Shown here: positions 14,690-55,120 of the stretch, in pieces
Numbering within the stretch: position 1 is the first letter of the stretch
How the letters are laid out: each line of letters opens with the position of its first letter
NCBI GenBank assembly: GCA_963804995.1
Contig: CAWDSK010000002.1
Coordinates: forward strand, 672,001-736,000
Length of the DNA stretch: 64,000 nucleotides
Source of the DNA: an uncultured Acidobacteriota bacterium
Lineage (GTDB): Bacteria; Acidobacteriota; Terriglobia; UBA7540
Direction: 5' to 3'
Made by a program: the position numbers and the translations under genes
Notes under the pieces: generated by a model
What the model saw: only the letters and a program-made list of their open reading frames with translations
Told to the model about the DNA's origin: nothing
Database searches by the model: none

Positions 14690-14896
14690 CAACGCTGTTC
14701 ACTTAGCGTTCGTTTTCATATTGACTTGCGTGAAGCGCCTTGGACTGCGGTAGCAGCAGCTACCGCCTTCGGTTCTTACGGCAAAGGCGCAGGGCTAAAG
14801 GATGAAAGGCGGTAGCTGCTGCTACCGCAGTCCAAAGCGGGCTTCGCCCGCAACTGGATTTCCTAATCCGTGACGACAGCTAAGTGAACAGTATTG
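14690..14896. mobile_element. MITE-like element enclosing an inverted REP-like doublet
   Basis: 18-bp terminal inverted repeats CAACGCTGTTCACTTAGC / GCTAAGTGAACAGTATTG (16/18); internal perfect 30-bp inverted repeat 14740-14769 / 14806-14835. Confidence 0.7.
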
Positions 14897-16185: not shown

Positions 16186-16321
16186 CGAGGGTAATGTTAA
16201 CCCGGCGCACGCTCTGGCTAGAAGCGGTTATTGGGTTCGAGGGCAGGAATTGGGGCTTGAAAGCCATTGTGATTTATAGTAGGCTTAATGTGAAGTATTC
16301 TGGCCCGGGTCGGCGAATTTA

Positions 16322-16830
16322 GTGAAAATGAAACGCCGAAAGCGCTAAATGGAACCTGTGGAAGCGGGCGAAGAGGATGTTCTAACCCATGATATACTAG
16401 AAAACAAAGGTAGTTAGCTGTAAAATGGCAGAAATGTCCGAACAGCTATGTTATTTAAATTTAATAAGATAGCTCGTGCCGACTGCGTGGGCGCGGTGAA
16501 ACAGGGGGAATTAAAAATGAAGGATGAACCCATGATGTCGTTGAAAACACATGTAGAAAAAATGTCAGTTTTGCGCTAACCCACTATGTTTATGAAAAAT
16601 ATGCTAGTTATAGTCGCTAACCCATGATGTCTATGAAAAGAAATGGAGTTAGCAGTTTTCTTTCACCATGGAAGGGGTTGATCGTGGCAAGCAGGGATGT
16701 GAGTAAGAATAGTTTCGGAGCATATGGTCATAACGCAGATCTGGCCGCAGTCAAGGCGCCAAACGGCCACCTGCCCGATCTCCGAACTCGCACTGGTTTT
16801 CCTGCCCTGGCCGCCCACACTCCTTCGCCG
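16322..16830 (+). repeat. Truncated copy A of the dispersed ORF-plus-repeat module (last ~30 codons, five AT-rich repeats, start of the long repeat unit)
   Basis: Collinear with the reverse complement of about 53300-53021 plus 51858-51640; repeats near 16384, 16440, 16527, 16578 and 16619. Confidence 0.85.
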
Positions 16831-16833
16831 AGG

Positions 16834-17041
16834 GTAGTGCCTCAGTTTGATTTTGTTGTAGCGGCGGTTCAACTGTCCCGACGATTCGTATCGGGATGGC
16901 CGCCGACTCTTGATCCCAGAGAATCAGGATCTACCCGCCAAGGTAATTGATGTCGTAGCGGCGAGTTTACCTCGGCAAATGGCGGCGCCCCGATAAGATC
17001 GAGATGATTTCCGCCGCCTCTACAGCAAACTGAGACACCAC
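16834..17041. mobile_element. MITE-like element containing GTAG-type REP palindromes
   Basis: Terminal inverted repeats GTAGTGCCTCAGTTTG / CAAACTGAGACACCAC (14/16); internal GTAGCGGCG...CCGCC hairpins. Confidence 0.65.
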
Positions 17042-17088
17042 GCTCTCTCGGGTGCACGCCTGGGAAATGAAATTCTGGGAAAGTGGGG

Positions 17089-17127
17089 TTGAAATAAGTT
17101 CTCTCTTACGGCTATAATAGCCGTAAG
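17089..17127 (+). promoter_or_regulatory. IS promoter TTGAAA-N18-TATAAT overlapped by an 11-1-11 palindrome
   Basis: TTGAAA 17089, TATAAT 17113; CTTACGGCTAT-A-ATAGCCGTAAG at 17105-17127. Confidence 0.65.
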
Positions 17128-17135
17128 GAGGAACC

Positions 17136-17537
17136 ATGGCTCAGTCTTTTGAAGTTCCTGGTCCGGTCCGTGAGCTTGCCGCTCGGTTGGGTCAGTCCCA
17201 GCCCATGCGGCGCGGCTCCCTATCGGAGCGTTATGTGAAATGCGGCAAGCCGGGTTGTGGTTGCGCGGAGGATGCCAAGGCGCGGCACGGCCCTTATTAC
17301 AGTCTGACGCAGGCGGTGGGAGGGCAGACCCGCTCCCGCTTCTTGAACCCCGAGGAAGCGCAGCGGGCGCGAGAGCAGATCGAGACGGGCCAGCAGTTTC
17401 GGCGTCAGGTGGAGGCTTACTGGGCTGCCTGTGAGCAATGGGCGGATGCCCAGCTGGAAGCCCGGGAGGAAGAAGGGCAAGCCGAGGTTAAAAAAAACCA
17501 CACTCGGCGAGGCTCTGGCGCACGACCTCACCGCTGA
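17136..17537 (+). CDS. IS-associated Cys/His protein (DUF6788-like)
   Basis: RGSLSERYVKCGKPGCGC...HGPYY motif; GGAGG RBS. Confidence 0.75.
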   Translation: MAQSFEVPGPVRELAARLGQSQPMRRGSLSERYVKCGKPGCGCAEDAKARHGPYYSLTQAVGGQTRSRFLNPEEAQRAREQIETGQQFRRQVEAYWAACEQWADAQLEAREEEGQAEVKKNHTRRGSGARPHR

Positions 17538-18843
17538 GATTGAGCGCCTGGTGGGTCGGGAAGCCACGGCGGCTCTGGACTTCGAGGCGGTGGAAACGGC
17601 CGTACGCCGTCAGGCTTTGCGCTTCGCCGCGCGGGTGGTGGAGCAGCGGCTGAATGCCGACCACTCCGACTTTACCGGAGCCCGTCGGCCGTGTTCCTGC
17701 GGTCAGCCCGCGCGCTATGTAGACCGGCGGGCCAAGCCTTTCCAGACCGTGCTGGGCGAATTACGGCTGGAGCGCGCCTACTATTATTGTGCTGCCTGCC
17801 AGCGCGGGTTCTGTCCTCGTGACCAGCAGTGGGGAATGGAGGACACTTCTCTGTCCCCGGCGGTGACACGCATGGTGGGCACGGTGGGAGCCTTGGTGAG
17901 CTTTCAAGAAGGGCGTGAACTCCTCGGGGAATTGGCGGGCGTGGAAGTAAGTGCCAAGCAGGTGGAGCGTACGGCGGAGGCGCTGGGAGCGGAAGTCGCC
18001 GAGGATGAACGCCAACCGGTGGAGGCGGTGAGGGAAGGACCCTTGCCGCCCACCCTCTATCTCGGCCTGGATGGTACCGGCATTCCCATGCGCAAGGAGG
18101 AACTCACGGGGCGAGCGGGCAAGCAGCCGGATGGCTCCGCCCAAACCCGCGAGGTCAAGGTCTGCGCCATCTGGAGCGCGGAAGCGCGCGATGCCGAAGG
18201 CCGGCCCCGGCGTGATGCTGGCTCGGTCAGCTACTCGGCGGCCATCGAGACGGCGGCCTGCCGCGACACCGACTCCCAGATCGCAGCATTTACCCAGCGC
18301 GTCGAGCGTGAGGCGAAGCGTCGAGACTTCGGGCAAGCCTCTCGCCAAGTGGTGATCGGCGACGGGGCTCCCTGGATCTGGAACATCGCCGCGGAGGTGT
18401 TCCCGCAAGCCCTGCAAATCGTGGATCGTTACCACGTGAAGGAGCATTTGAGCCAAGTGGCCAAGGCCCTCTATGGGCAAGCGGAGGCATCCCATCGCTG
18501 GGCGCAACGTCGGCACCAAGAATTGGATGGCGGGCGTTGGCGGAGTCTGACGACGGCGCTGGCCCGCCATGCGGCCCGCTCACCGGAAGCCCGCAACTGC
18601 CTTCAGTACTTGCAGCGCAACCGGCACCGCATGCGCTACGCGGAATTTCATGCCCAGCACCTGTGTACTTCCTCAGGGGTTCTGGAGGCGGGTTGCAGGG
18701 TCGTCGTGGGGTCGCGCCTAAAACGTTCGGGCATGCATTGGACCGTGCGCGGCTCCAATGCCATCATCGCTCTGCGGTGTTACAAACTCAGCGGTCGCTT
18801 CGAAGACTTCTGGGAACGCCGGGCGCACAGGGTGGGGGCGTGA
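17431..18843 (+). CDS. ISKra4-family DDE transposase
   Basis: CSCG...YYYCAAC, LYLGLDGTG, VIGDGAPWIW, VDRYH, SGVLEAGCR and RLKRSGMHW motifs; true start uncertain. Confidence 0.9.
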   Translation: MSNGRMPSWKPGRKKGKPRLKKTTLGEALAHDLTAEIERLVGREATAALDFEAVETAVRRQALRFAARVVEQRLNADHSDFTGARRPCSCGQPARYVDRRAKPFQTVLGELRLERAYYYCAACQRGFCPRDQQWGMEDTSLSPAVTRMVGTVGALVSFQEGRELLGELAGVEVSAKQVERTAEALGAEVAEDERQPVEAVREGPLPPTLYLGLDGTGIPMRKEELTGRAGKQPDGSAQTREVKVCAIWSAEARDAEGRPRRDAGSVSYSAAIETAACRDTDSQIAAFTQRVEREAKRRDFGQASRQVVIGDGAPWIWNIAAEVFPQALQIVDRYHVKEHLSQVAKALYGQAEASHRWAQRRHQELDGGRWRSLTTALARHAARSPEARNCLQYLQRNRHRMRYAEFHAQHLCTSSGVLEAGCRVVVGSRLKRSGMHWTVRGSNAIIALRCYKLSGRFEDFWERRAHRVGA

Positions 18844-26591: not shown

Positions 26592-26818
26592 GATGGCTCC
26601 CTCCGAAGGTACGGCATCCCTTCTATTTACCTTTCGGCCACCCGGGGTAAAAGGTTTATTGGAAATTTCCACAGCGCTTGTCTATCCAACTGCTCACCCC
26701 CCCCGCTATTTGATCCGAGCTGAAGTTGGAGCAATTTGAGAATCCTGGCGGTTTGCCAAATGCGCATCGCGTCCCTGCCCGTCGTAATCGAGAGGGACTC
26801 TACCTGCCATGTAATTTT

Positions 26819-26849: not shown

Positions 26850-27105
26850 TTTCTTTCATCAACATAATGGAAAGACGGCTATAACTCGTGTTTTTTCATT
26901 AACATAATGGAAAGGCCGAAAACCGACATTTTTTCTACATTTGTTTTCAATAACATAATGGAGGTTACCTTCATTTTTTCCCCCCGCGTTTTTTCCACCC
27001 TGCCGCCAAGATCGAACTAACTATCTTATTTTCATTTGGATAGGTTTTTGTGAGATTTTCTATTTTTCCGCTAACCCCTTTTGTTTCCGGTACATAATGG
27101 AAAGC
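26850..27105 (-). repeat. AT-rich repeat array of module copy B
   Basis: Three well-conserved CCATTATGTT(N)2TGAAA units, one variant (CCATTATGTACCGGAAA) and one degenerate unit on the minus strand; collinear with 16384-16655 and 53021-53240. Confidence 0.85.
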
Positions 27106-27149
27106 CGCAGCCTTTTGTAGCGCCGGGCTTTAGCCCGGCAGGTGCCGAT

Positions 27150-28355
27150 CTAAAGGTCGGCCCTACCACGGCTTTCATCATCCTGAGCTTCCATCTTCCG
27201 CTCATAGCGCTTAATCTTCAGAAGCAGATTGGTAACACGGCGGACTTCCCGAAAGTTGGAATCCTGCATTCGGCGCATGAGGCGCGCGTTGGGGTGCGTG
27301 GGAGCGATTTCCGCGGCGCGTTCGTAAGGCGACGGCCCCGTCAAGGACTCTTTCAAGGTGGCCTTGCGCTGCGCCTCGCAAATCTCCACCTGCCGTTTTA
27401 GGATGTTCTCCAGAAGTTGGCGGGGCCGTTCGCGCGCCTCCCACTCCGCCGCGGTGATTCCGGGATATCGCCTCGCCGCTTCGGCAGCGCCAGCCTCCGG
27501 TTGGATAGAAGCCGACGCTCCGTCCGCTTCGGTTTCCTCCGTCGCTGGTGGGCCTTCCTGTGGGGGGCTGGGAGGCGGTTGTATGCCCGGTGGATAATAA
27601 GGCTTATCACCTAGGAGCCTGTCGGAGATAGATTTCGTTGTACGTAGAATTAATAACTTAGCGAGATTCGAGTGTCTGTAAGTTGTTGATTCTTCGTTGA
27701 CGAATTATTATTTCCGACACACTCCTAGAGCAAAGATCTCCTTGATCTTGGCGAGGGCGCGGCGAGATCTCTCATTGGGGTCAATGCCGTCCTCACCCGT
27801 GCCCGGCGCCTGCAATTGGTAGAAAAGAGCGAGAGCGATTTCGCCCATCTCCAGCAACACACCCTCCTGATGCAGGTTCTTCATCTTTTCCAGATCCTCG
27901 CGAGAGGTGACGTAATACTCGTGCGCGACCGATTGGACGAGCCGCCCCAAACTTTCCGCCGTCATCTTCAGGCGCATCATGCGGGCGTGCAACCGGTCCT
28001 GCCGCCCGCTGCTCACCTCCAGGGCTTGGCGCACGGCGTAGCCTTCCTGCATGCGGTCAGCGCGATTCATCAGCCACGTGGCCCGCGCCAGACGGATCAC
28101 CAACCCCTCCTGCGAGATGCCGGCAGGTTTATATTCCTCCCAGAGCCCTGCCAGCAGTTCCTGGAAGTGGCCCGGGTCTTCGCCCAGAGCGCGCATAGCT
28201 ACCTCTTCCGCCTGCGCGTAGAACCCATGGCGCAAGTGCGCGTCGCGGATGCGCTCTCGGCCCTCCGGCGTCACCGGGACGTGGCAAAGCTTCTGGTTCC
28301 GCCGGTTCGCGGCCAGTTGCTTCTCCGACAGTTTATGTTTCTTGACGAGCGACAT
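27150..28355 (-). pseudogene. Uncharacterised module ORF, copy B (about 363 aa when restored), split by a MITE
   Basis: MSLVKKHKLSEKQLAANRRN...RHGFYA; removing 27615-27728 rejoins ...KEIFAL to GDKPYY...SPYERAAEIAP...LLLKIKR in frame; homologous to 53208..54312. Confidence 0.8.
27615..27724. mobile_element. 110-bp MITE with CTAG target duplication
   Basis: Ends GAGCCTGTCGGAGATA / TATTTCCGACACACTC; CTAG at 27611-27614 and 27725-27728. Confidence 0.85.
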
Positions 28356-28565
28356 GGAATACCTCCAAGAGCAAAAACGCATTCAGCCATAAGCCGTCAG
28401 CTTTCATCTTGCTGGCTAGTGCCGATCCCAACTTGTCGGGACTCACAAAGGGGGCTCGCTGCCTTCTGCTGACTGCCTGCTGTTTCTCCCCAGCCCCTAG
28501 CACCCAGCGCCGGGCACTTCATACTAAGATTAACATTTACCATAGGGGTAATTGCAAGAGGAAGG

Positions 28566-28601
28566 TTTACGATGTGGGCTACCGGTAGCCCACATCGTAA
28601 A
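28566..28601. repeat. Perfect 36-bp palindrome at the 5' edge of module copy B
   Basis: TTTACGATGTGGGCTACC|GGTAGCCCACATCGTAAA. Confidence 0.9.
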
Positions 28602-29130
28602 AGAGTACGTCACATTGTCCGAATTTATTTCCGCAGTCGCTCAGGGCCGTCCGGGCCGGCAGAATGTGTCCCACATCGAGCCAACCGTGGGATGCAGATG
28701 GCACACAGGTGGATTCGTTGTGGGGGCGCTTCCCGATCAGATCGGGACGGGACGCGAAGCGCCCTGGCTGGAACGTGGAAGAATCTTGACACGGGCGGGT
28801 CGCGAACCACCCCTACTGCTATCCAGGGCTGTTGGCATGGGCCACCTTCTGTCGCCGCTACGCGGCTTGCCTCCGCTCGCTTCGTTTCCCTATCGTGTGG
28901 TCTGGCCAGCCGAATGCGAAGGCGAGGATTTGAAGCTGGGAGCGGCAGACAAAAAAGTTCCGCGCTACGCTTGTTCCCGAACCCCTAACTTCCCGCTGGG
29001 CAAAGTAGGTATCCTTACTGGACGCGAGCAGTTGTGCCAGGCTGCGTGCTGATCTTCCGACTTATTTGCTAGTACCCTCCCTTACCCTTGCCCCTTGCGC
29101 TTGGGTTGGTCCCTGGTGGCGGTCAGATGG

Positions 29131-29814: not shown

Positions 29815-30038
29815 AGGGCTCCTCCTTATAGTTTCCGAATTGACAAAACACTCTCTTGGGAACGGGCCTCCGGGCAATACTCCGCATCGCTCACAAGTCG
29901 TCGATTACAAGTGATTGCGCGAAGGCCCCTTCGCCTGACGATTAATCATTTCAATCTCTGTTCACAAACCATGAGGGGTTCAAGATTCTTTGCGAGTATC
30001 CCGAACCCCTCTCTGCCCAATAGGGCCAGTGTGTTTCC

Positions 30039-32036
30039 TTACTGGAGTCGTGTGGTAGCACCCGGCTGAGGTTTGGCCCGGCTGGCGAACTGTGCCTCGC
30101 GGACCTGTTTTGCCCCCGGACGGACTTCCGCCGTCCCGGCACCGCTTCTGGCCCCATCGAACTTGAATTGCCCCACCAACCGCTGGAGTTCCGCCGCCAT
30201 GCGGGCCAATTCCTGCGCCGCCGTCTGGGTGTTGGTTGCGCCTTCGGTAGTGCTTTTCGCGGCGGTGGCCACCGATACGATATTCTCGACAATTTGTGAG
30301 CTTCCCTTGGCCGCCTCACTCACATTGCGAGTAATCTCGTTGGTGGTGGCCGTTTGTTCCTCCACCGCGCTGGCAATCGTGTTGGAGATATCGTTCAGTT
30401 GGTTGATAATGGTGGTAATCTGCCCAATGGCCTCCACGGCGCCCTTGGTGTCTCCCTGGATTGCCTCGATTTTCCGGCTGATATCCTCGGTCGCCTTGGC
30501 GGTCTCCTTGGCCAGTTCTTTCACCTCGTTGGCCACGACGGCAAAGCCCTTGCCAGCCTCGCCAGCTCGCGCCGCCTCGATTGTGGCGTTCAGAGCCAGA
30601 AGGTTGGTTTGTTGCGCGATGGAAGTAATAACCTTGATGACCTGCCCAATTTCCGCGCTGGATTCGCCGAGCTTGCCGACGGTGGCGTTGGTGCTTTCCG
30701 CCGTGCGCACCGCGGCGGTCGCGATCTTGGCCGCTTCGGTGGCGTTTTTGGCGATTTCCTTGATGCTGGAACTCATCTCTTCGGTCGCGGTCGCGACGGT
30801 CTGGATGTTTTTGGAAACCTGCTCGCTCGCAGCCGAGACGACATTGGCTTGACTCGAGGTTTCTTCCGCGTTGGAACTCATTTGCGCGCTGACGGCGGAA
30901 AGCTCCTCGGAAGAACTGGCTAGGGTCTGCGCGTTTTGGCTTATTTGCCCCATGCTCTCCGAGAGTTTGTCCGCCATGGTATTGATGTCGTCCTTGATGC
31001 GCGCATGGTCACCCTGGTAGTTGCCCACGACATGGGCCGTCAGATCCCCTCCGGCAACCTTTTGCAGCACTCCCCCGGCTTCCTGTACTGGCGCGATGAC
31101 GGCGTCCAAGGTCTCGTTTACACCCTGCACGACCCTACGGAAGTCGCCCTGGTGTTTAGTGGCGTCGGCGCGGGTCGCCAGTTTGCCTTCCACCGCCGCC
31201 TTCGACAGCACTTCCGCATCTTTCACCAGCCCCTCGATGCCTCCCATCATTGCGATGAGGGCCGGGACTAATTCATCATGTTCGGAGCGGCGCCCGATCT
31301 TTTGGTATTCCGGCAAATCCTCCAAGTTCCCTTGCGAAACCTTCTTCGCCGTCTCGATGACATGATGAACTCGCTTCTGAACAGTGTTTGTCCCCTCGGC
31401 TAACTCGGCCAAGGATCCCCCATAGTCACCCTTAACCTGAACGGTGTAGTCGTTAATGGCCATCCGTTTCAGGACATTGGTCACCTCGTCCATGGCCGGC
31501 AGAATCGTGTCGAGCATCTGGTTGATCGCTTTAGCTCTTTCAAGATGCCGACCCTGGAACCTGCCTTCATCGATTCGCTCTGTGAGCCGCCCTTCCGCGA
31601 CGCCAGCGGCCAAGCGCGACGTTTCACGAGCCAGCGTGACGTCACCAACGGCGGGAAAAACGAGTTCCACAATACCTATTACCCGTCCTGCCGCGTCGAA
31701 CCGTGGAGCTGCCGAAACTAGTACGGGCACTTCTTTGCCCTGAACCATGGGGAAGGCTTCTCCCTCGCACACCTTGCCCGTCTTTGCTGCTTCAGCCGCC
31801 GCACAGGTTCCGGCCCTGCAGCCGGGGTTGTCATACAGGTCCCAAAACTTTGCGCCGATGCAGTCCTCTTTTGGTTTGCCCGCTGCCTTAGCGGCGGGCT
31901 CGTTAAGATCCAGAATGGTGTGGTTCGTGTCCATGACGACCACCATGCCTGGAATCAGGTCGTAGACTTCAGCCTTGTCCACGACAACACTACCTTTACC
32001 AATACCACGCGGTTTTCTGTCGCTGCCTTTTGTCAT
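30039..32036 (-). CDS. Soluble methyl-accepting chemotaxis protein (PAS, HAMP-like repeats, signalling domain)
   Basis: [30 protein letters not shown] tip; N-terminal PAS-like segment; no transmembrane stretch. Confidence 0.92.
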
Positions 32037-43228: not shown

Positions 43229-43379
43229 TCGCGGAGGGGCATTTTTAGCGGGTTTTGGCGCGGATGGGCGGCCGGCGGGAGGTCTCCATCCTTCTCTTTC
43301 CATCCTAGCCTATAATCTGAGCCTCCTGCGAATTTGCAAGATTGCCCCTGTGGCATGAAGGGGTTGGCGGTGGCTGTCT

Positions 43380-43525
43380 CGTAGCGCGGTCCTCCGTCGT
43401 TGGGGTCCGCGGCTCTTCCTTTGAAGAATCCACAAATCTCAAAGACGGGCGGCATTGCCACGACACATTCGCTCACATTGCGCAGGAAGAACCGCGGACC
43501 TCAACGGCGGAGGTCCGCGCTACGA
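43380..43525. repeat. Inverted GTAG-type REP doublet
   Basis: GTAGCGCGGTCCTCCGTCGTTGGGGTCCGCGG ... CCGCGGACCTCAACGGCGGAGGTCCGCGCTAC; a third copy lies near 59290-59325. Confidence 0.7.
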
Positions 43526-43851
43526 GGGCTCGATCGCGCGGTGGTGCCCCAACCCCCGGCTAAAGTTTCTCCCTGCAAACGAGATATTAAGGATGGAGGG
43601 CGGGCCCGCTCCGGCCGGTCAAGGAAGAGATTCCTTAACTATGGCTGGAGTGAAGGGTGCCCGTTCCACTGGGTTTTGAACGATCGGCTGGCAAGGCTTG
43701 CGTGCTCAGCGAGGATGTCTCACTTTTAGAACTCCCCTCCTCAGATGAGGAGGGGTGGCGCGCTGAGCGACGGGGTGGTGTTGAACAGCGCTCAAGGAGC
43801 GGTTCGCGAACCGGCCCTACTTTAGTCTTGCATTTGGCGTGAGGTAAGGCT

Positions 43852-51139: not shown

Positions 51140-51790
51140 TTGACAAGGAGAGCGTGGGCGGTCGGGGCAGCGACAACCGCTAAGAGTTTGGCGGGCGCGC
51201 TATCAGTTACCGTCGGCCCGCGAGCCGTGCCGTCGCATGATGGAGCGCCAAAACCCGGCGCTGTGGATCTATTTTTGCTCACTTCCCTGCCTTCCTCTGC
51301 CGATAAACGATGCGGAGGAGTGTGGGCGGCCGGGGTGGTGATGACCACTGAGAGTTGCACAGTCGCGCTGTCATTTGCCGTGGGCCCGGGGGCCGTGCCG
51401 TTGAATGATGGTGCTCCAGGATCCGTCACGGCGGGACAATCTTTACTCACTTCGTTGCCTCCCTCCGCCGATAGACGATGTAGGGGAGTGTGGGCCGCCG
51501 GCGCAGGAGATTCAGGGATTCCTCGGAGATCAGGCGCGCAATCGTTTGTCGTCGCAAAAACGGTTAGCACTGCGTCAAGTTCTGTTGTGGTGTGACCATT
51601 TTTACTCACTTCGCTGTCTCCATCTGCCGATAAACGATGCGGGGGAGTGTGGGCCGCCGGCGCAGGAAAATCAGTGCGAGTTCGGAGATCGGGCGGATGG
51701 CCGCTTGGCGTCATGACTGCGGCCAGATCTGCGTCAATACCTGGCGCTGTGAAGCCATTTTTTCTCACTTCCCTGCTTGCCCCCATCGAC
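51140..51790. repeat. Tandem repeats of 159/159/168 bp at the tail of module copy C
   Basis: CTCACTT anchors at 51278, 51446, 51605 and 51764; the minus strand reads PAAHTP.HRLSA..EVSK repeatedly. Confidence 0.85.
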
Positions 51791-51860
51791 CCCTTCCGTG
51801 GTAAAAGATAACTGCTAACCACCTTTTTTCATCAACATAATGGGTTAGCGACACTAACTA

Positions 51861-53018
51861 GTGTCCTGAGTCAGAAGTTCGCTCAATAAATGGCAGTTCC
51901 CGTGCATTGGGTTTATAACCAGGAGGAATCCAATGCCACGAGGACGCCCTATACCGAAATTGAGTTTGAGCTTGGAAGAGCGCGAAACCTTGCAGCGCTG
52001 GGCACGGCGGCCGAAAACGGCGCAAGCGCTGGCGTTGCGCGCGCGCATTGTACTGGCCTGCGCGGAGGACCAAAGCAATACCGAAGTGAGCCTTGCCCTG
52101 CGGTTGTGTCAGCGAACCGTGGGCAAGTGGCGAGGCCGATTCGTCGCCCAGCGTCTGGAGGGGCTGCTGGACGAACCCCGCCCCGGAGCACCGCGCCAGA
52201 TCCACGACGCGCAGGTGGAACAGGTATTGACCATGACGCTGGAATCGATGCCGTCGAACGCGACCCACTGGAGCACCCGACTGATGGCCCGGCGTTGCGG
52301 GATGAGCCAGAGTGCGGTCAGCCGCATCTGGCGGGCCTTTGCCTTGCAACCCCATCGCAGCGAAACCTTCAAACTGTCGCGCGACCCGCTGTTTATCGAG
52401 AAGGTGCGGGATATCGTGGGACTCTATCTGAACCCGCCCGAACGGGCCTTGGTGCTCTGCGTGGATGAAAAGGCCCAGATCCAAGCCTTGGACCGAACCC
52501 AACCTTTGCTCCCCCTGCGACCCGGGCAGATCGAGCGGCGAACGCACGATTACGAGCGCCATGGCACCACCTCGCTGTTTGCCGCTCTGGAGATGGCCAG
52601 TGGCCAAGTCATCGGCGAGTGCCATCGTCGGCATCGCGCCATCGAGTTTCGCCAGTTTCTGGACACGGTCGATGCCGCCACGCCCGCCCAATTGGACGTG
52701 CACCTGATTCTGGATAACTATGGCACGCACAAGACGCCCTCGATTCGACGCTGGCTGGTGCGCCATCCTCGCTACCATTGGCACTTTACTCCCACCGGGT
52801 CGTCCTGGATCAACTTGGTCGAGCGCTGGTTCGCGACCCTGACCGAACGACAACTCCGGCGCGGAGTACACCGCAGCACCCAAGAACTGGAAGCGACCTT
52901 GCGGCACTACGTGGAAACTTATAACCAAGACCCTAAACCTTTCATTTGGACCAAAACGGCTGACCAAATTCTTGAAGCCGTGGCCCGATTTTGTAAGCGA
53001 ACTTCTGACTCAGGACAC
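51861..53018 (+). mobile_element. IS630-family insertion sequence
   Basis: Perfect 23-bp terminal inverted repeats GTGTCCTGAGTCAGAAGTTCGCT; TA duplication at 51859-51860 and 53019-53020 within CTAG. Confidence 0.95.
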
Positions 53019-53021
53019 TAG
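51933..53021 (+). CDS. IS630-family transposase
   Basis: HTH region, [28 protein letters not shown]; stop codon supplied by the target TAG. Confidence 0.95.
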
Positions 53022-53243
53022 CTTATTTTTCAGTAATATAATGGGTTCAATGGAGACTGAAATATTTTCTACATGTGTTTTCAACAACATAATGGGTTCA
53101 ACCTTCATTTTTAATTCCCCCTTTTCTGCTGCACCCACTCCGTCAGATTCAACTAAGTTATTTAATTTCAGACACATAGACGTTTGGACATTTCTGCCAT
53201 CCCACCCTTAAGTTCCTTTGTTTTCTAGTATATATTGGGTTAG
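53021..53243 (-). repeat. AT-rich repeat array of module copy C (last unit at about 51815-51857, beyond the IS)
   Basis: AACCCATTAT(G/A)TT..TGAAAA units on the minus strand, collinear with copies A and B. Confidence 0.85.
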
Positions 53244-54312
53244 AAGGTCCTCTTCGCTCGCTTCCACTGCTTCCCTTTTGCCCTCTTGGCGTTTGATTTT
53301 CAGCAGCAGATTGGTGAGTCGGCGCACTTCTCGCAGGTTGGCATCTTGCATGCGCCGCATCAGCAAGCCATCCGCGTGGCTGGGCGCGACTTCCGCCGCG
53401 CGTTCGTAGGGCGAGGGCCCCGCCCAGCGACTGCTTCAGCAGGGCCTTGCGTTGCGTCTCACAACCCTCCGCCTGCCGGCTCAGGATATTCCTCAGGAGC
53501 TTGCGCGCCCGCTCCCGTGCCTTCCAGTCGTCCTTCGTGATCTTGGGGTACCGATCATCCTTTTCCGTATCTTCTCCCTCTTCATCATCGGGAAGTCCAT
53601 CGATCTCTTCGGAGCCTTCGGGCCGGAGCACTATGCGCTCTCCGGAGGGGGTTAGCATAGAGACCGGCGAATCTATCGTCTCCAGTCCGAAGATTGACCG
53701 GAAGCTGTTGATGGCGCCGCGATACCTCTCCTCTTGGGAAACTCCCGCCTTGTCCGCGCCAGGGTCCCGCAGTTGGTAGAAGAGGTCCAGGGCAATCTCA
53801 CCCATTTCGGCCGCTACCCCGTCCTGCTGCAGTTTTTTCATGACTTCCAGGTCTTCGCAGGTGGTGACGTAATGCCAGCAGGCCACCGAGCGGGCCAGCG
53901 AGCGCAGCATTTCCACCGTCATCTTGAGGCGCATCATCCGCGCGTGCAGCCGGTTGGGACGTCCCTGGTCGGCGTTCTGGGCACGGCGTAGCGCGTCGCC
54001 CTCCTGGGAGCGATCGGCACGGTCCATCAGCCACAGGACCCGCGCCAGACGGATCACCAGTTTTTCCTGCAAGGCACCTTGGGGAGTGAATTCCTCGCGG
54101 AGTCCAGAGAGCAGTTCCTCAAAGTGTGCCGGGTCCTCCCCTAAACCGCACAAAGCCACCTCCTGCGCCCGGGCATAGAAGCCATGACGCAGGCGCGCGG
54201 CGCCAGCGCGCTCCTTCCCCTCCACGGTCGCCGGGCCTTGGGATTGATTCCCGTTGAGCCGATTGGCGGCCAGTTTCTTGTCCGACAGTTTATGTTTCTT
54301 AACTAGAGACAT
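53208..54312 (-). CDS. Uncharacterised module ORF, copy C (about 367 aa), apparent 1-nt frameshift near 53425
   Basis: MSLVKKHKLSDKKLAANRLN..SQGPATVEGKER...RHGFYA; after one extra G it continues GPSPYERAAEVAP...LLLKIKR...ILENKGT*; homologous to copy B. Confidence 0.8.
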
Positions 54313-54551
54313 GGAAAACCTCCAAGAGCAAAAACGCGTTCAGCCATCAGCCGTCAGCTTTCAGCTTACTGCCTAATGCCGATTCCGACTTGTCAGGACT
54401 CGCAAAGGGGTCTCGCTGCCTGCTGCTTTCTGCCTACTGCCTTCTGTTTCTCCCCAGGCCCCAAGCACCTAGCACCTGGCACTCAGCGCCGGGCACTTCA
54501 CATTAAGATTAACATTTATCGTAGGGGTAATTGCAATGAGAAGATTTACGC

Positions 54552-54571
54552 TTGGGCTACCGGTAGCCCAA
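54552..54571. repeat. Palindrome at the 5' edge of module copy C
   Basis: TTGGGCTACC|GGTAGCCCAA with TACG/CGTA flanks; homolog of 28566-28601. Confidence 0.85.
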
Positions 54572-54668
54572 ATCGTACAGGAGGGGCGTCTAATTGTCCG
54601 AAATCGTCCCGGCGCTACCCCCGATGTCCGCAAGGCCTTTCGGACGGCTTGCCGCCGGACCAGGAAAC

Positions 54669-55120
54669 GTAGGGGCACCCCTCGTCGGTGCCCTAAGGGG
54701 GCCGACTCGGCCCCGGCCAGGGCAGGCACGAGACCTGCCCCTACCTCCTCCTAGCCCCAAAGGGGCGAGCTTCCATAGCCCAGGCCAACGGCCCATAAGC
54801 GCTAAGATAAGGTGCCAATGCGGCCAAATTTGCGGAATCGGCAACTCAAAAATGGCCAGAATCTCATCGTATCTTAGCGCTTATGGGCCAACGGCCTGGG
54901 TAACGGCCTGGGTGAGGCACCCAATTCCCTTTTAATTCCATTCCAGCCCTGAAGGGGCGAGCCAATTGCAGGGGGCCGTACCGGCAGGCGCATCCTTCTA
55001 TCACGCCCATTCAGGGCTCATGCGTCGAAATGGTTTATGCCGTTTACCCAGGCCGATGGCCCACCATTAAGACCGGCGGACCTTCGGCCTGGGCTGTGAT
55101 AGGTCGCCCCGTTGGGGCTC
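54669..55120. repeat. REP-like palindrome cluster
   Basis: GTAGGGGCA...TGCCCCTAC doublet, then AGCCCCAAAGGGGCGA ... TCGCCCCGTTGGGGCT enclosing AGCCCTGAA / TTCAGGGCT. Confidence 0.65.
54791..54888. mobile_element. 98-bp MITE
   Basis: Perfect 19-bp terminal inverted repeats GCCCATAAGCGCTAAGATA; direct repeat CCAACG at 54785-54790 and 54889-54894. Confidence 0.8.

Follow-up and report, generated by a model that had tools for sequence, protein, structure and literature searches.

A multicopy element of Terriglobia without a recognizable transposase: a possible small-terminase-bearing parasite of a gene-transfer-agent-like cluster

How does a DNA element come to be scattered over a bacterial chromosome if it encodes no transposase? 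This question is raised by a 64,000-nt stretch of DNA (hereafter, the window), corresponding to positions 672001–736000 of contig C2 in its source genome (G000), where an earlier note had described three diverged copies, A, B, and C, of an apparently undescribed element. Homologues with a named organism come from Terriglobia. The copies characterized here point to DNA multiplication without a transposase. Our reading, which is tentative and which we rate clearly below an even chance, is that of a minimal parasite of a gene transfer agent (GTA), in which an orphan small terminase (TerS) under the late switch of the agent marks a phased array as a preferred packaging site, and the element multiplies without a recombinase.

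Organization of the copies in the window

Copies B and C, both on the minus strand, have the same order of parts, namely, a GGACAAT motif, a dyad, a promoter-like stretch, a leader, an ORF, and an array. Sequence comparison bore out the order read earlier in these two copies (palindrome, TTGCAA...TGTTAATCT promoter-like stretch, leader, ORF, and array) but not the view of the palindrome as a terminal feature: the copies have ~33–56 bp further upstream in common, including CGGACAAT, and the dyad is subterminal. All the window copies (n = 3) are broken.

Copy B is placed between a yaaH-family gene and cheY. Its GGACAAT motif is at 28614–28620 (minus strand), and the common left end reaches roughly 15–20 bp further out. 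The dyad, GGG-CTACCGGTAG-CCC, a putative activator or operator site, occupies 28576–28591 and is perfect over 28566–28601. It is followed on the minus strand by a predicted sigma70-like promoter (28528–28557; −35 hexamer TTGCAA at 28552–28557 and a −10-like stretch near 28528–28535) and by a leader (28356–28527), most of which is made up of 7-mer-type short repeats and one small palindrome, all recurring genome-wide. The ORF for a predicted small-terminase-like helical protein (27150–28355, minus strand) is interrupted by a 118-bp CTAG-ended miniature element (27611–27728), which has 10 further copies at 92–100% identity; after in silico removal of this insert, the ORF encodes 361 aa. Neither the B nor the C ORF is intact. 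A GTAG-led hairpin doublet (27118–27168), presumably REP-like, separates the end of the B ORF from the array (26853–27100, minus strand), the units of which (27083–27100, 26944–26961, 26893–26910, and 26853–26870) are spaced by 139, 51, and 40 bp. Outside the element, a duplicated remnant of an MCP gene tail (26690–26810, minus strand) precedes cheY. The ends of the 118-bp element resemble those of the IS630-type element at 51858–53021, its possible parent type.

In copy C, the GGACAAT motif (54593–54599, minus strand) is followed by the dyad (54554–54569), a predicted sigma70-like promoter (54507–54536, minus strand), and the ORF (53208–54312, minus strand); identity with a sister copy runs ~72 bp past the dyad. 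The ORF has a +1 frameshift near 53425, shared by a copy of 95% identity located 225 kb away (G000:C2:500148–501793). Array units 1–3 (53027–53238, minus strand) are at 53221–53238, 53078–53095, and 53027–53044, with a degenerate unit at 53165–53182. An IS630-type insertion sequence foreign to the element (51858–53021, plus strand; DDE_3 transposase and 34-bp inverted repeats) lies in the array before the last unit (51826–51843, minus strand), and a co-carried right-hand extension of 159–168-bp tandem units follows (51150–51825, minus strand), the first 190 bp of which also occurs after copy A. Such tandem units (51150–51781 and 16638–16828) are found downstream of several arrays and are spanned by an open frame containing a repeated PAAHTPPHRLS-like peptide.

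Copy A had been regarded as a relic, and it is indeed a solo right end without an upstream dyad (16321–16828, plus strand), comprising an ORF tail remnant (16321–16452), array units (16387–16404, 16530–16547, 16581–16598, and 16622–16639, plus strand), and the common extension. Of the differing orientations noted before, A is opposite to B and C, whereas B and C agree with each other. The array described as having five units and overlapping the ORF end has four clear units plus one degenerate unit, and the overlap exists in C but not in B. No Rfam match was obtained over copies A, B, or C (leader, array) at E values up to 1. A two-ORF insertion sequence encoding DUF6788 and UPF0236-type transposase proteins lies just downstream of copy A (16960–18843).

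Copy number and distribution of the element

The window copies are not the whole set; dozens were found across the genome. A 16-mer scan allowing up to two mismatches gave 73 hits, which fell to 70 with the expected context and, after removal of two more without context, to 68 left ends (palindrome plus promoter). The genome also contains 52 phased right-end arrays. These clusters of at least two units compare with 0 adjacent pairs after shuffling, and together with phased-pair controls this excludes chance: with a stricter motif, a phased pair was found downstream of 31 of the 68 palindromes but of only 22 of 2000 random windows, and searching the other way from the palindromes gave 0 of 68. 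Of the 52 arrays, 41 have a same-strand dyad no more than 6 kb upstream. The spacing of the array units (~136–143, 51, and 40–41 bp) is found again in other species. The majority of copies have internal deletions and are mainly 0.4–1.0 kb long, and those having both a dyad and a phased pair by the stricter motif are 421–3196 bp long (most <1.1 kb). Intact ORFs include those at C2:130794 (371 aa), C6:1403101 and C4:38394 (383 aa), C3:27876 (322 aa), and C4:178114 (296 aa), and several diverged paralogues are encoded per genome.

Protein matches numbered 2–36 per genome in 17 of 18 same-genus genomes, and the family was detected in 5 of 201 genomes in a phylum-wide draw (22 candidates scored per genome). 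A profile search retrieved 26,306 clusters at E ≤ 0.001, and the best 80 of 100 GTDB loci were distributed over Acidobacteriota, Planctomycetota, Alphaproteobacteria, Verrucomicrobiota, cyanobacteria, and other groups, a single genome contributing as many as 14. This analysis offers an initial lead on function for a very large hypothetical-protein family found in soil Acidobacteriota, Planctomycetota, and Alphaproteobacteria. If the GTA-parasite reading is true, this family, spread over at least five phyla, would be among the largest unannotated mobile-element families of soil bacteria.

Empty sites, purifying selection, and ragged ends

The claim of a multicopy, mobile-looking element without a known transposase is upheld by the copy number, by empty orthologous sites, by deletion derivatives that retain both ends, and by the dN/dS values of the ORF, which were 0.03–0.38 in all 54 pairs computed; the ORF is under purifying selection. 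Empty sites in relatives, which had been suggested as a check, were found for copy B: its site lacks the element in 14 of 16 informative orthologous loci, and the MCP gene abuts cheY in 9 of these 14. At the B junction, an array is present in G013, and a left end is fused to a right remnant in G005. These remnants in two other species indicate that the insertion of B is old rather than recent. In the window, the MCP gene tail is duplicated around the yaaH-family gene (26690–26810, 28975–29044, and 29877–30068), and the MCP–cheY junction of relatives also has other genes inserted and the tail duplicated, which makes it an insertion hot spot.

The same data bear on domestication, in which the ORFs would be accessory host small terminases of a GTA-like system and the cassettes packaging-start or regulatory sites kept by the host for moving or expressing neighbouring genes. 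The occupation of B's site since before the split of three species and the selection on the ORF agree with this explanation, as do the dyad and spacing held in common with a highly conserved cluster (see below) and the orientation of the arrays. Of the 52 arrays, 48 point into the next host ORF of at least 200 aa, compared with an expected fraction of ~0.53 (P = 8e-10, with crude ORF calls), and the elements put predicted regulated promoters before dozens of host genes. We nevertheless consider domestication unlikely, since the copies are not syntenic, as the empty loci indicate; many ORFs are broken; the number of matches varies from 2 to 36 among the genomes with a match; and small ORFs of the cluster's own precede its large terminase.

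The copies C4a and C6a are 99% identical from the dyad to the ORF end and differ upstream of the dyad, and the right end of C6a is fused to an inverted array. The halves to the left and right of the dyad are shuffled among copies, which gives a mosaic, and the crossover in chimeric copies is at or near the dyad. The common sequence usually ends 33–56 bp upstream of the dyad on the left, but it can reach up to ~300 bp in some groups and runs past 900 bp in three copies, and its right limit is ragged, from the last array unit out to ~900 bp. In the part of the comparison available for Bryobacter, the left end of the copies is likewise sharp, near TTCAC, and their right ends are ragged. Neither terminal inverted repeats nor target duplications were seen across the compared copies, for which there was no close empty site that would allow a base-level check for duplication. 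At G000:C6:1401750–1401950, the right end of an element stands head-to-head with the inverted array of another, and the two break off at nearly the same place ahead of the second unit, which may be a site of cleavage or recombination.

The dyad and its counterpart in a phage-like head cluster

The centre of the dyad is 25–26 bp before the −35 hexamer in 59 of the 60 hexamer-bearing copies (8 of 68 have no hexamer). This places the dyad at about −61, which we take to be the usual position for a class I activator. The sole large-terminase match of G000 is found on another contig than the window copies, which have no large terminase beside them. It sits in a ~32-kb cluster (G000:C5:300700–333100) that also holds portal, major head, and virion genes and has host genes on either side. 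Four dyads, arranged as two tandem pairs, lie ahead of this cluster before a small HTH gene. Because of the fixed −35 spacing and the tandem copies in the phage-like cluster promoter, the dyad looks like a regulator site, and the same two features lend no support to the earlier idea of a terminal hairpin.

We examined the link with the head cluster within this genus. The head gene was found in 24 of 29 genomes, mostly at 91–96% identity and as a single match in 18 of the 24. The HTH gene is present in 12 of 29 genomes; in 9 of the 11 other than G000, it is on the same contig as the head gene, at a distance of 13–16 kb upstream. A dyad lies upstream of the HTH gene in 10 of the 12 (tandem in 8). 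Outside G000, the cluster dyad arms are TTC/GAA, and in the three genomes in which both were detected, the arms agree between the cluster and the elements, with GGG/CCC in G000 and TTC/GAA in G003 and G013. In G001, G002, G008, and G018, the cluster dyad is present and no element end was found by the strict pattern. In 7 of the 11 other genomes, the tandem-dyad promoter is directly preceded by an Ogr/Delta-like zinc-finger gene (below the Pfam cut-off), whose G000 homologue is displaced to elsewhere on C5 (G000:C5:135951); we regard the product of this gene as a candidate activator. The cluster is a candidate GTA of Terriglobia, judging from its gene content. It resembles RcGTA in that head, portal, and terminase genes lie amid host genes, are mostly single copy, and occur genus-wide. 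Unlike RcGTA, the cluster of G000 has an in-frame stop (TGA) in its large terminase, and its portal match is split across two ORFs; a crude ORF reading showed no replication or integration genes. The comparison brings to light a GTA-like cluster of genus-wide occurrence that has a defined candidate regulator site, and what is new here is a candidate helper that shares this site with the element.

The form of the dyad varies. GGG/CCC arms were found in two of the 29 genus genomes, one of which has just a single copy, and GGACAAT followed by the core CTACC[CG]GTAG in 12 of 29. Among 30 such GGACAAT-core ends from five genomes, with dyad stems of 3–11 bp, 23 lead to a piece of the family ORF or a phased array. 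Nor is the link to the dyad general: a clear one was seen at only 9 of 28 full-length loci from other genomes, and the intact copy at G000:C2:130794 has none. Only one stray dyad core was found genome-wide. Two other candidate roles for the dyad were rejected: no SOS-box use was evident, as none lies before recA or two LexA-domain genes, bar one word with two mismatches, and for an intrinsic terminator the T-run is ahead of the stem on both strands of the sequence. By eye alone, the array units resemble the consensus sequences of attC, dif, and IHF sites.

These features allow an assessment of one-ended, rolling-circle-like transposition by a host HUH enzyme acting in trans (REP-associated or IS200/IS605-type), with the TerS-like protein merely organizing the end complex. 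Such a mechanism would fit the rather well-defined left end, the ragged right ends, the capture of flanks of up to ~900 bp, the lack of visible target duplications, and the 14 Y1_Tnp matches in the genome, and the dyad core CTAC-NN-GTAG is like joined REP ends. We judge it distinctly unlikely all the same: the stem is only 3 bp in 9 of the 30 copies from other genomes, the spacing of the dyad is tied to the promoter rather than to the end, the same dyad is found at the cluster promoter, and no HUH gene is linked to the elements. The element does resemble IS91/ISCR elements and MITE/parent pairs in its single ORF, its unlike ends, the capture of flanks, the lack of any visible target duplication, and its internally deleted derivatives. 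Unlike IS91/ISCR, IS200-type, and DDE/MITE elements, it has no HUH or DDE enzyme and no terminal inverted repeats, and its palindrome acts like a promoter site.

The encoded protein

Full-length copies gave no match at a meaningful E value against Pfam, NCBIfam, and PHROG. The best E value for PHROG 9231, 0.0013, was below the cut-off for that family. Sequence searches of the PDB with both profiles gave best E values of 0.46–0.58, neither a DDE domain nor an HUH family match was detected in the window copies and four full-length copies searched, and the ESM Atlas clusters with values above 0.9 were all unnamed. The core of the protein comprises an arm (ANRxNAxKSTGPxTxxGK...NA.RHG), two helices, an insert of 15–200 aa that is highly variable in the family, and a closing helix. 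Predicted models were all-helical (pLDDT 79 and 88), with the arm plus a helical hairpin. Foldseek found nothing at E ≤ 0.001 in the pdb and viral libraries. The VIA fold search gave generic helical bundles, with no TerS among the 50 matches listed for the short model; HK97 TerS (8pop_A) appeared in the fold search at rank 46 (Z 6.8, rmsd 7.7, 99 aligned) amid generic helical matches, and a profile comparison with HK97 TerS gave 0.1%. A four-copy complex prediction scored 0.41, compared with a mark of 0.42. Solved TerS proteins are rings of 8–12 protomers that bind a specific site, and HK97 TerS reads DNA with N- and C-terminal helices, according to the part of the source available here (PMC11331095).

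A tblastn search of phages with one member of the family gave 11 weak records (E = 0.03–9). Six of these phage genes, chosen by their similarity to the family, were examined: one is annotated as a terminase small subunit, three adjoin a large terminase or lie ~300 bp before it, and, of the remaining two, one is ~1 kb before a large terminase and one has none in view. In hhalign, the family profile matched these six genes at 97.8% (E = 1e-12, 78 columns), and the Terriglobia profile did so at 91%; the values without the Microcystis row were 97.0% and 81%, respectively. Column-shuffled controls scored at most 22, compared with 73 for the real alignment. The helical part alone was not significant (12.8 versus a shuffled maximum of 12.6). 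By these profile matches, the N-terminal arm is of the TerS type, and the rest of the protein is compatible with TerS. The hunch that the N-terminus recalls the tail of HGGxSTG-type proteins was right, and the arm leads to phage genes of the small-terminase type (97–98% in hhalign). The HGGxSTG domain itself (NF041373) had no match in four full-length copies, with a best member E of 0.11 and no Cys ribbon in the alignments. Phage small terminases with an HGGxSTG-type arm include phiT1 gp63, a BboS-125 gene before terL, and gene 1 of an Andromeda-like Bacillus phage (PHROG 9231/6177 and NF041373). The element protein has in common with them the TGPxTxxGK...N...HG arm, helices in register, and a basic all-helical nature; it differs in having no zinc ribbon before the arm and in its variable insert. 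The element gene further differs from that of phage TerS in its many copies per chromosome, its 3'-end array, and the absence of adjacent large-terminase or capsid genes.

Close relatives in viruses were not seen: a full-length profile found no close homologue among 83 candidate stretches of viral contigs, and neither did the query P0268 in GenBank phages. Of six distant members in viral contigs, five follow an ERF-DUF968 annealing gene, with YqaJ ahead of the latter where in view, and two are near DUF5681 and large-terminase genes. In four of the viral-contig members, an AACGAA[CG]CCA-like word is located 30 bp before the start codon.

Two further explanations concern the protein itself. It might be an anti-phage decoy, in which orphan forms of TerS, induced along with the late genes of a phage, spoil or divert the packaging of an invader, the arrays titrate its terminase, and copies spread by duplication and gene conversion. 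A TerS-type arm with so variable an insert, the late-promoter-like dyad, the several diverged paralogues per genome, and the neighbourhood of the two viral-contig members would all be in keeping with a decoy. Most copies, however, have no ORF yet retain both ends, which is the signature of non-autonomous mobile elements, and a casual, unsystematic view noticed no clustering with defence genes; we hold this explanation to be improbable. The other is a new strand-transfer enzyme with the conserved His-Gly-x-Tyr and Arg-x-x-Arg-x-x-Glu as an unrecognized active site. In its favour, H43, Y46, R98, R101, and R331 are conserved at 85–98% in 102 close-family sequences, and full-length and deleted copies behave as an autonomous/non-autonomous pair. 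The His-Gly motif is common to phage TerS arms, however, the Tyr is lost in the wider family, and the model is a bare helical hairpin without a nuclease-like core, which makes such an enzyme highly improbable.

Proposed mechanism and relation to known systems

The broader form of our preferred explanation, which we put only a little short of an even chance, is a minimal selfish element without a transposase, consisting of a TerS-type gene and its own putative array, that hijacks packaging by a resident GTA-like machine. The regulator that switches on the cluster would bind the dyad at about −61 and activate the element gene simultaneously. The element protein would then oligomerize, bind the array, whose phasing of 51 and 40–41 bp corresponds to about 5 and 4 helical turns, and recruit the large terminase of the cluster, with preferential packaging of element DNA as the outcome. 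Delivered fragments may recombine into the chromosome via homology to other copies or short host repeats, and deleted copies retaining both ends could travel in trans. Such recombination would explain the ragged mosaic copies, the captured flanks, and the absence of target duplications. It is also the weakest step, because packaging alone creates no new loci, and the orientation bias of the arrays is not predicted by the hijack model.

SaPI and PICI satellites encode their own TerS, and satellite P4 has Ogr/Delta-dependent promoters. The element is like these in having a predicted packaging-specificity protein of its own, a putative cis site, and expression that is apparently coupled to the late regulator of a helper. 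Unlike them, it has no integrase, primase, replicase, or att sites, and derivatives of 0.4–1.0 kb hold no ORF; it measures 0.4–1.8 kb, compared with 10–15 kb for SaPI/PICI, and is present as dozens of mosaic copies scattered over the chromosome. Its presumed helper, unlike those of SaPI, PICI, and P4, is a cluster conserved by vertical descent. If the GTA-parasite reading is true, the element would be cheating a system meant for the random transfer of host DNA, and the idea of selfish GTA passengers that bias packaging is now directly testable. A search of the openly available literature, judged by titles, found no description of such an element.

Five DNA sequencing runs, and no RNA run among those listed, matched weakly (shares of 0.05–0.11), and comparison with the assembled contigs of four of them showed mainly short host repeats. 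In the window, one weak match to Acido-Lenti-1 (25 bits, below the cut-off of 37) was obtained among the intergenic inverted repeats, families of which are found at 55060–55119, 14736–14839, and 43378–43526.
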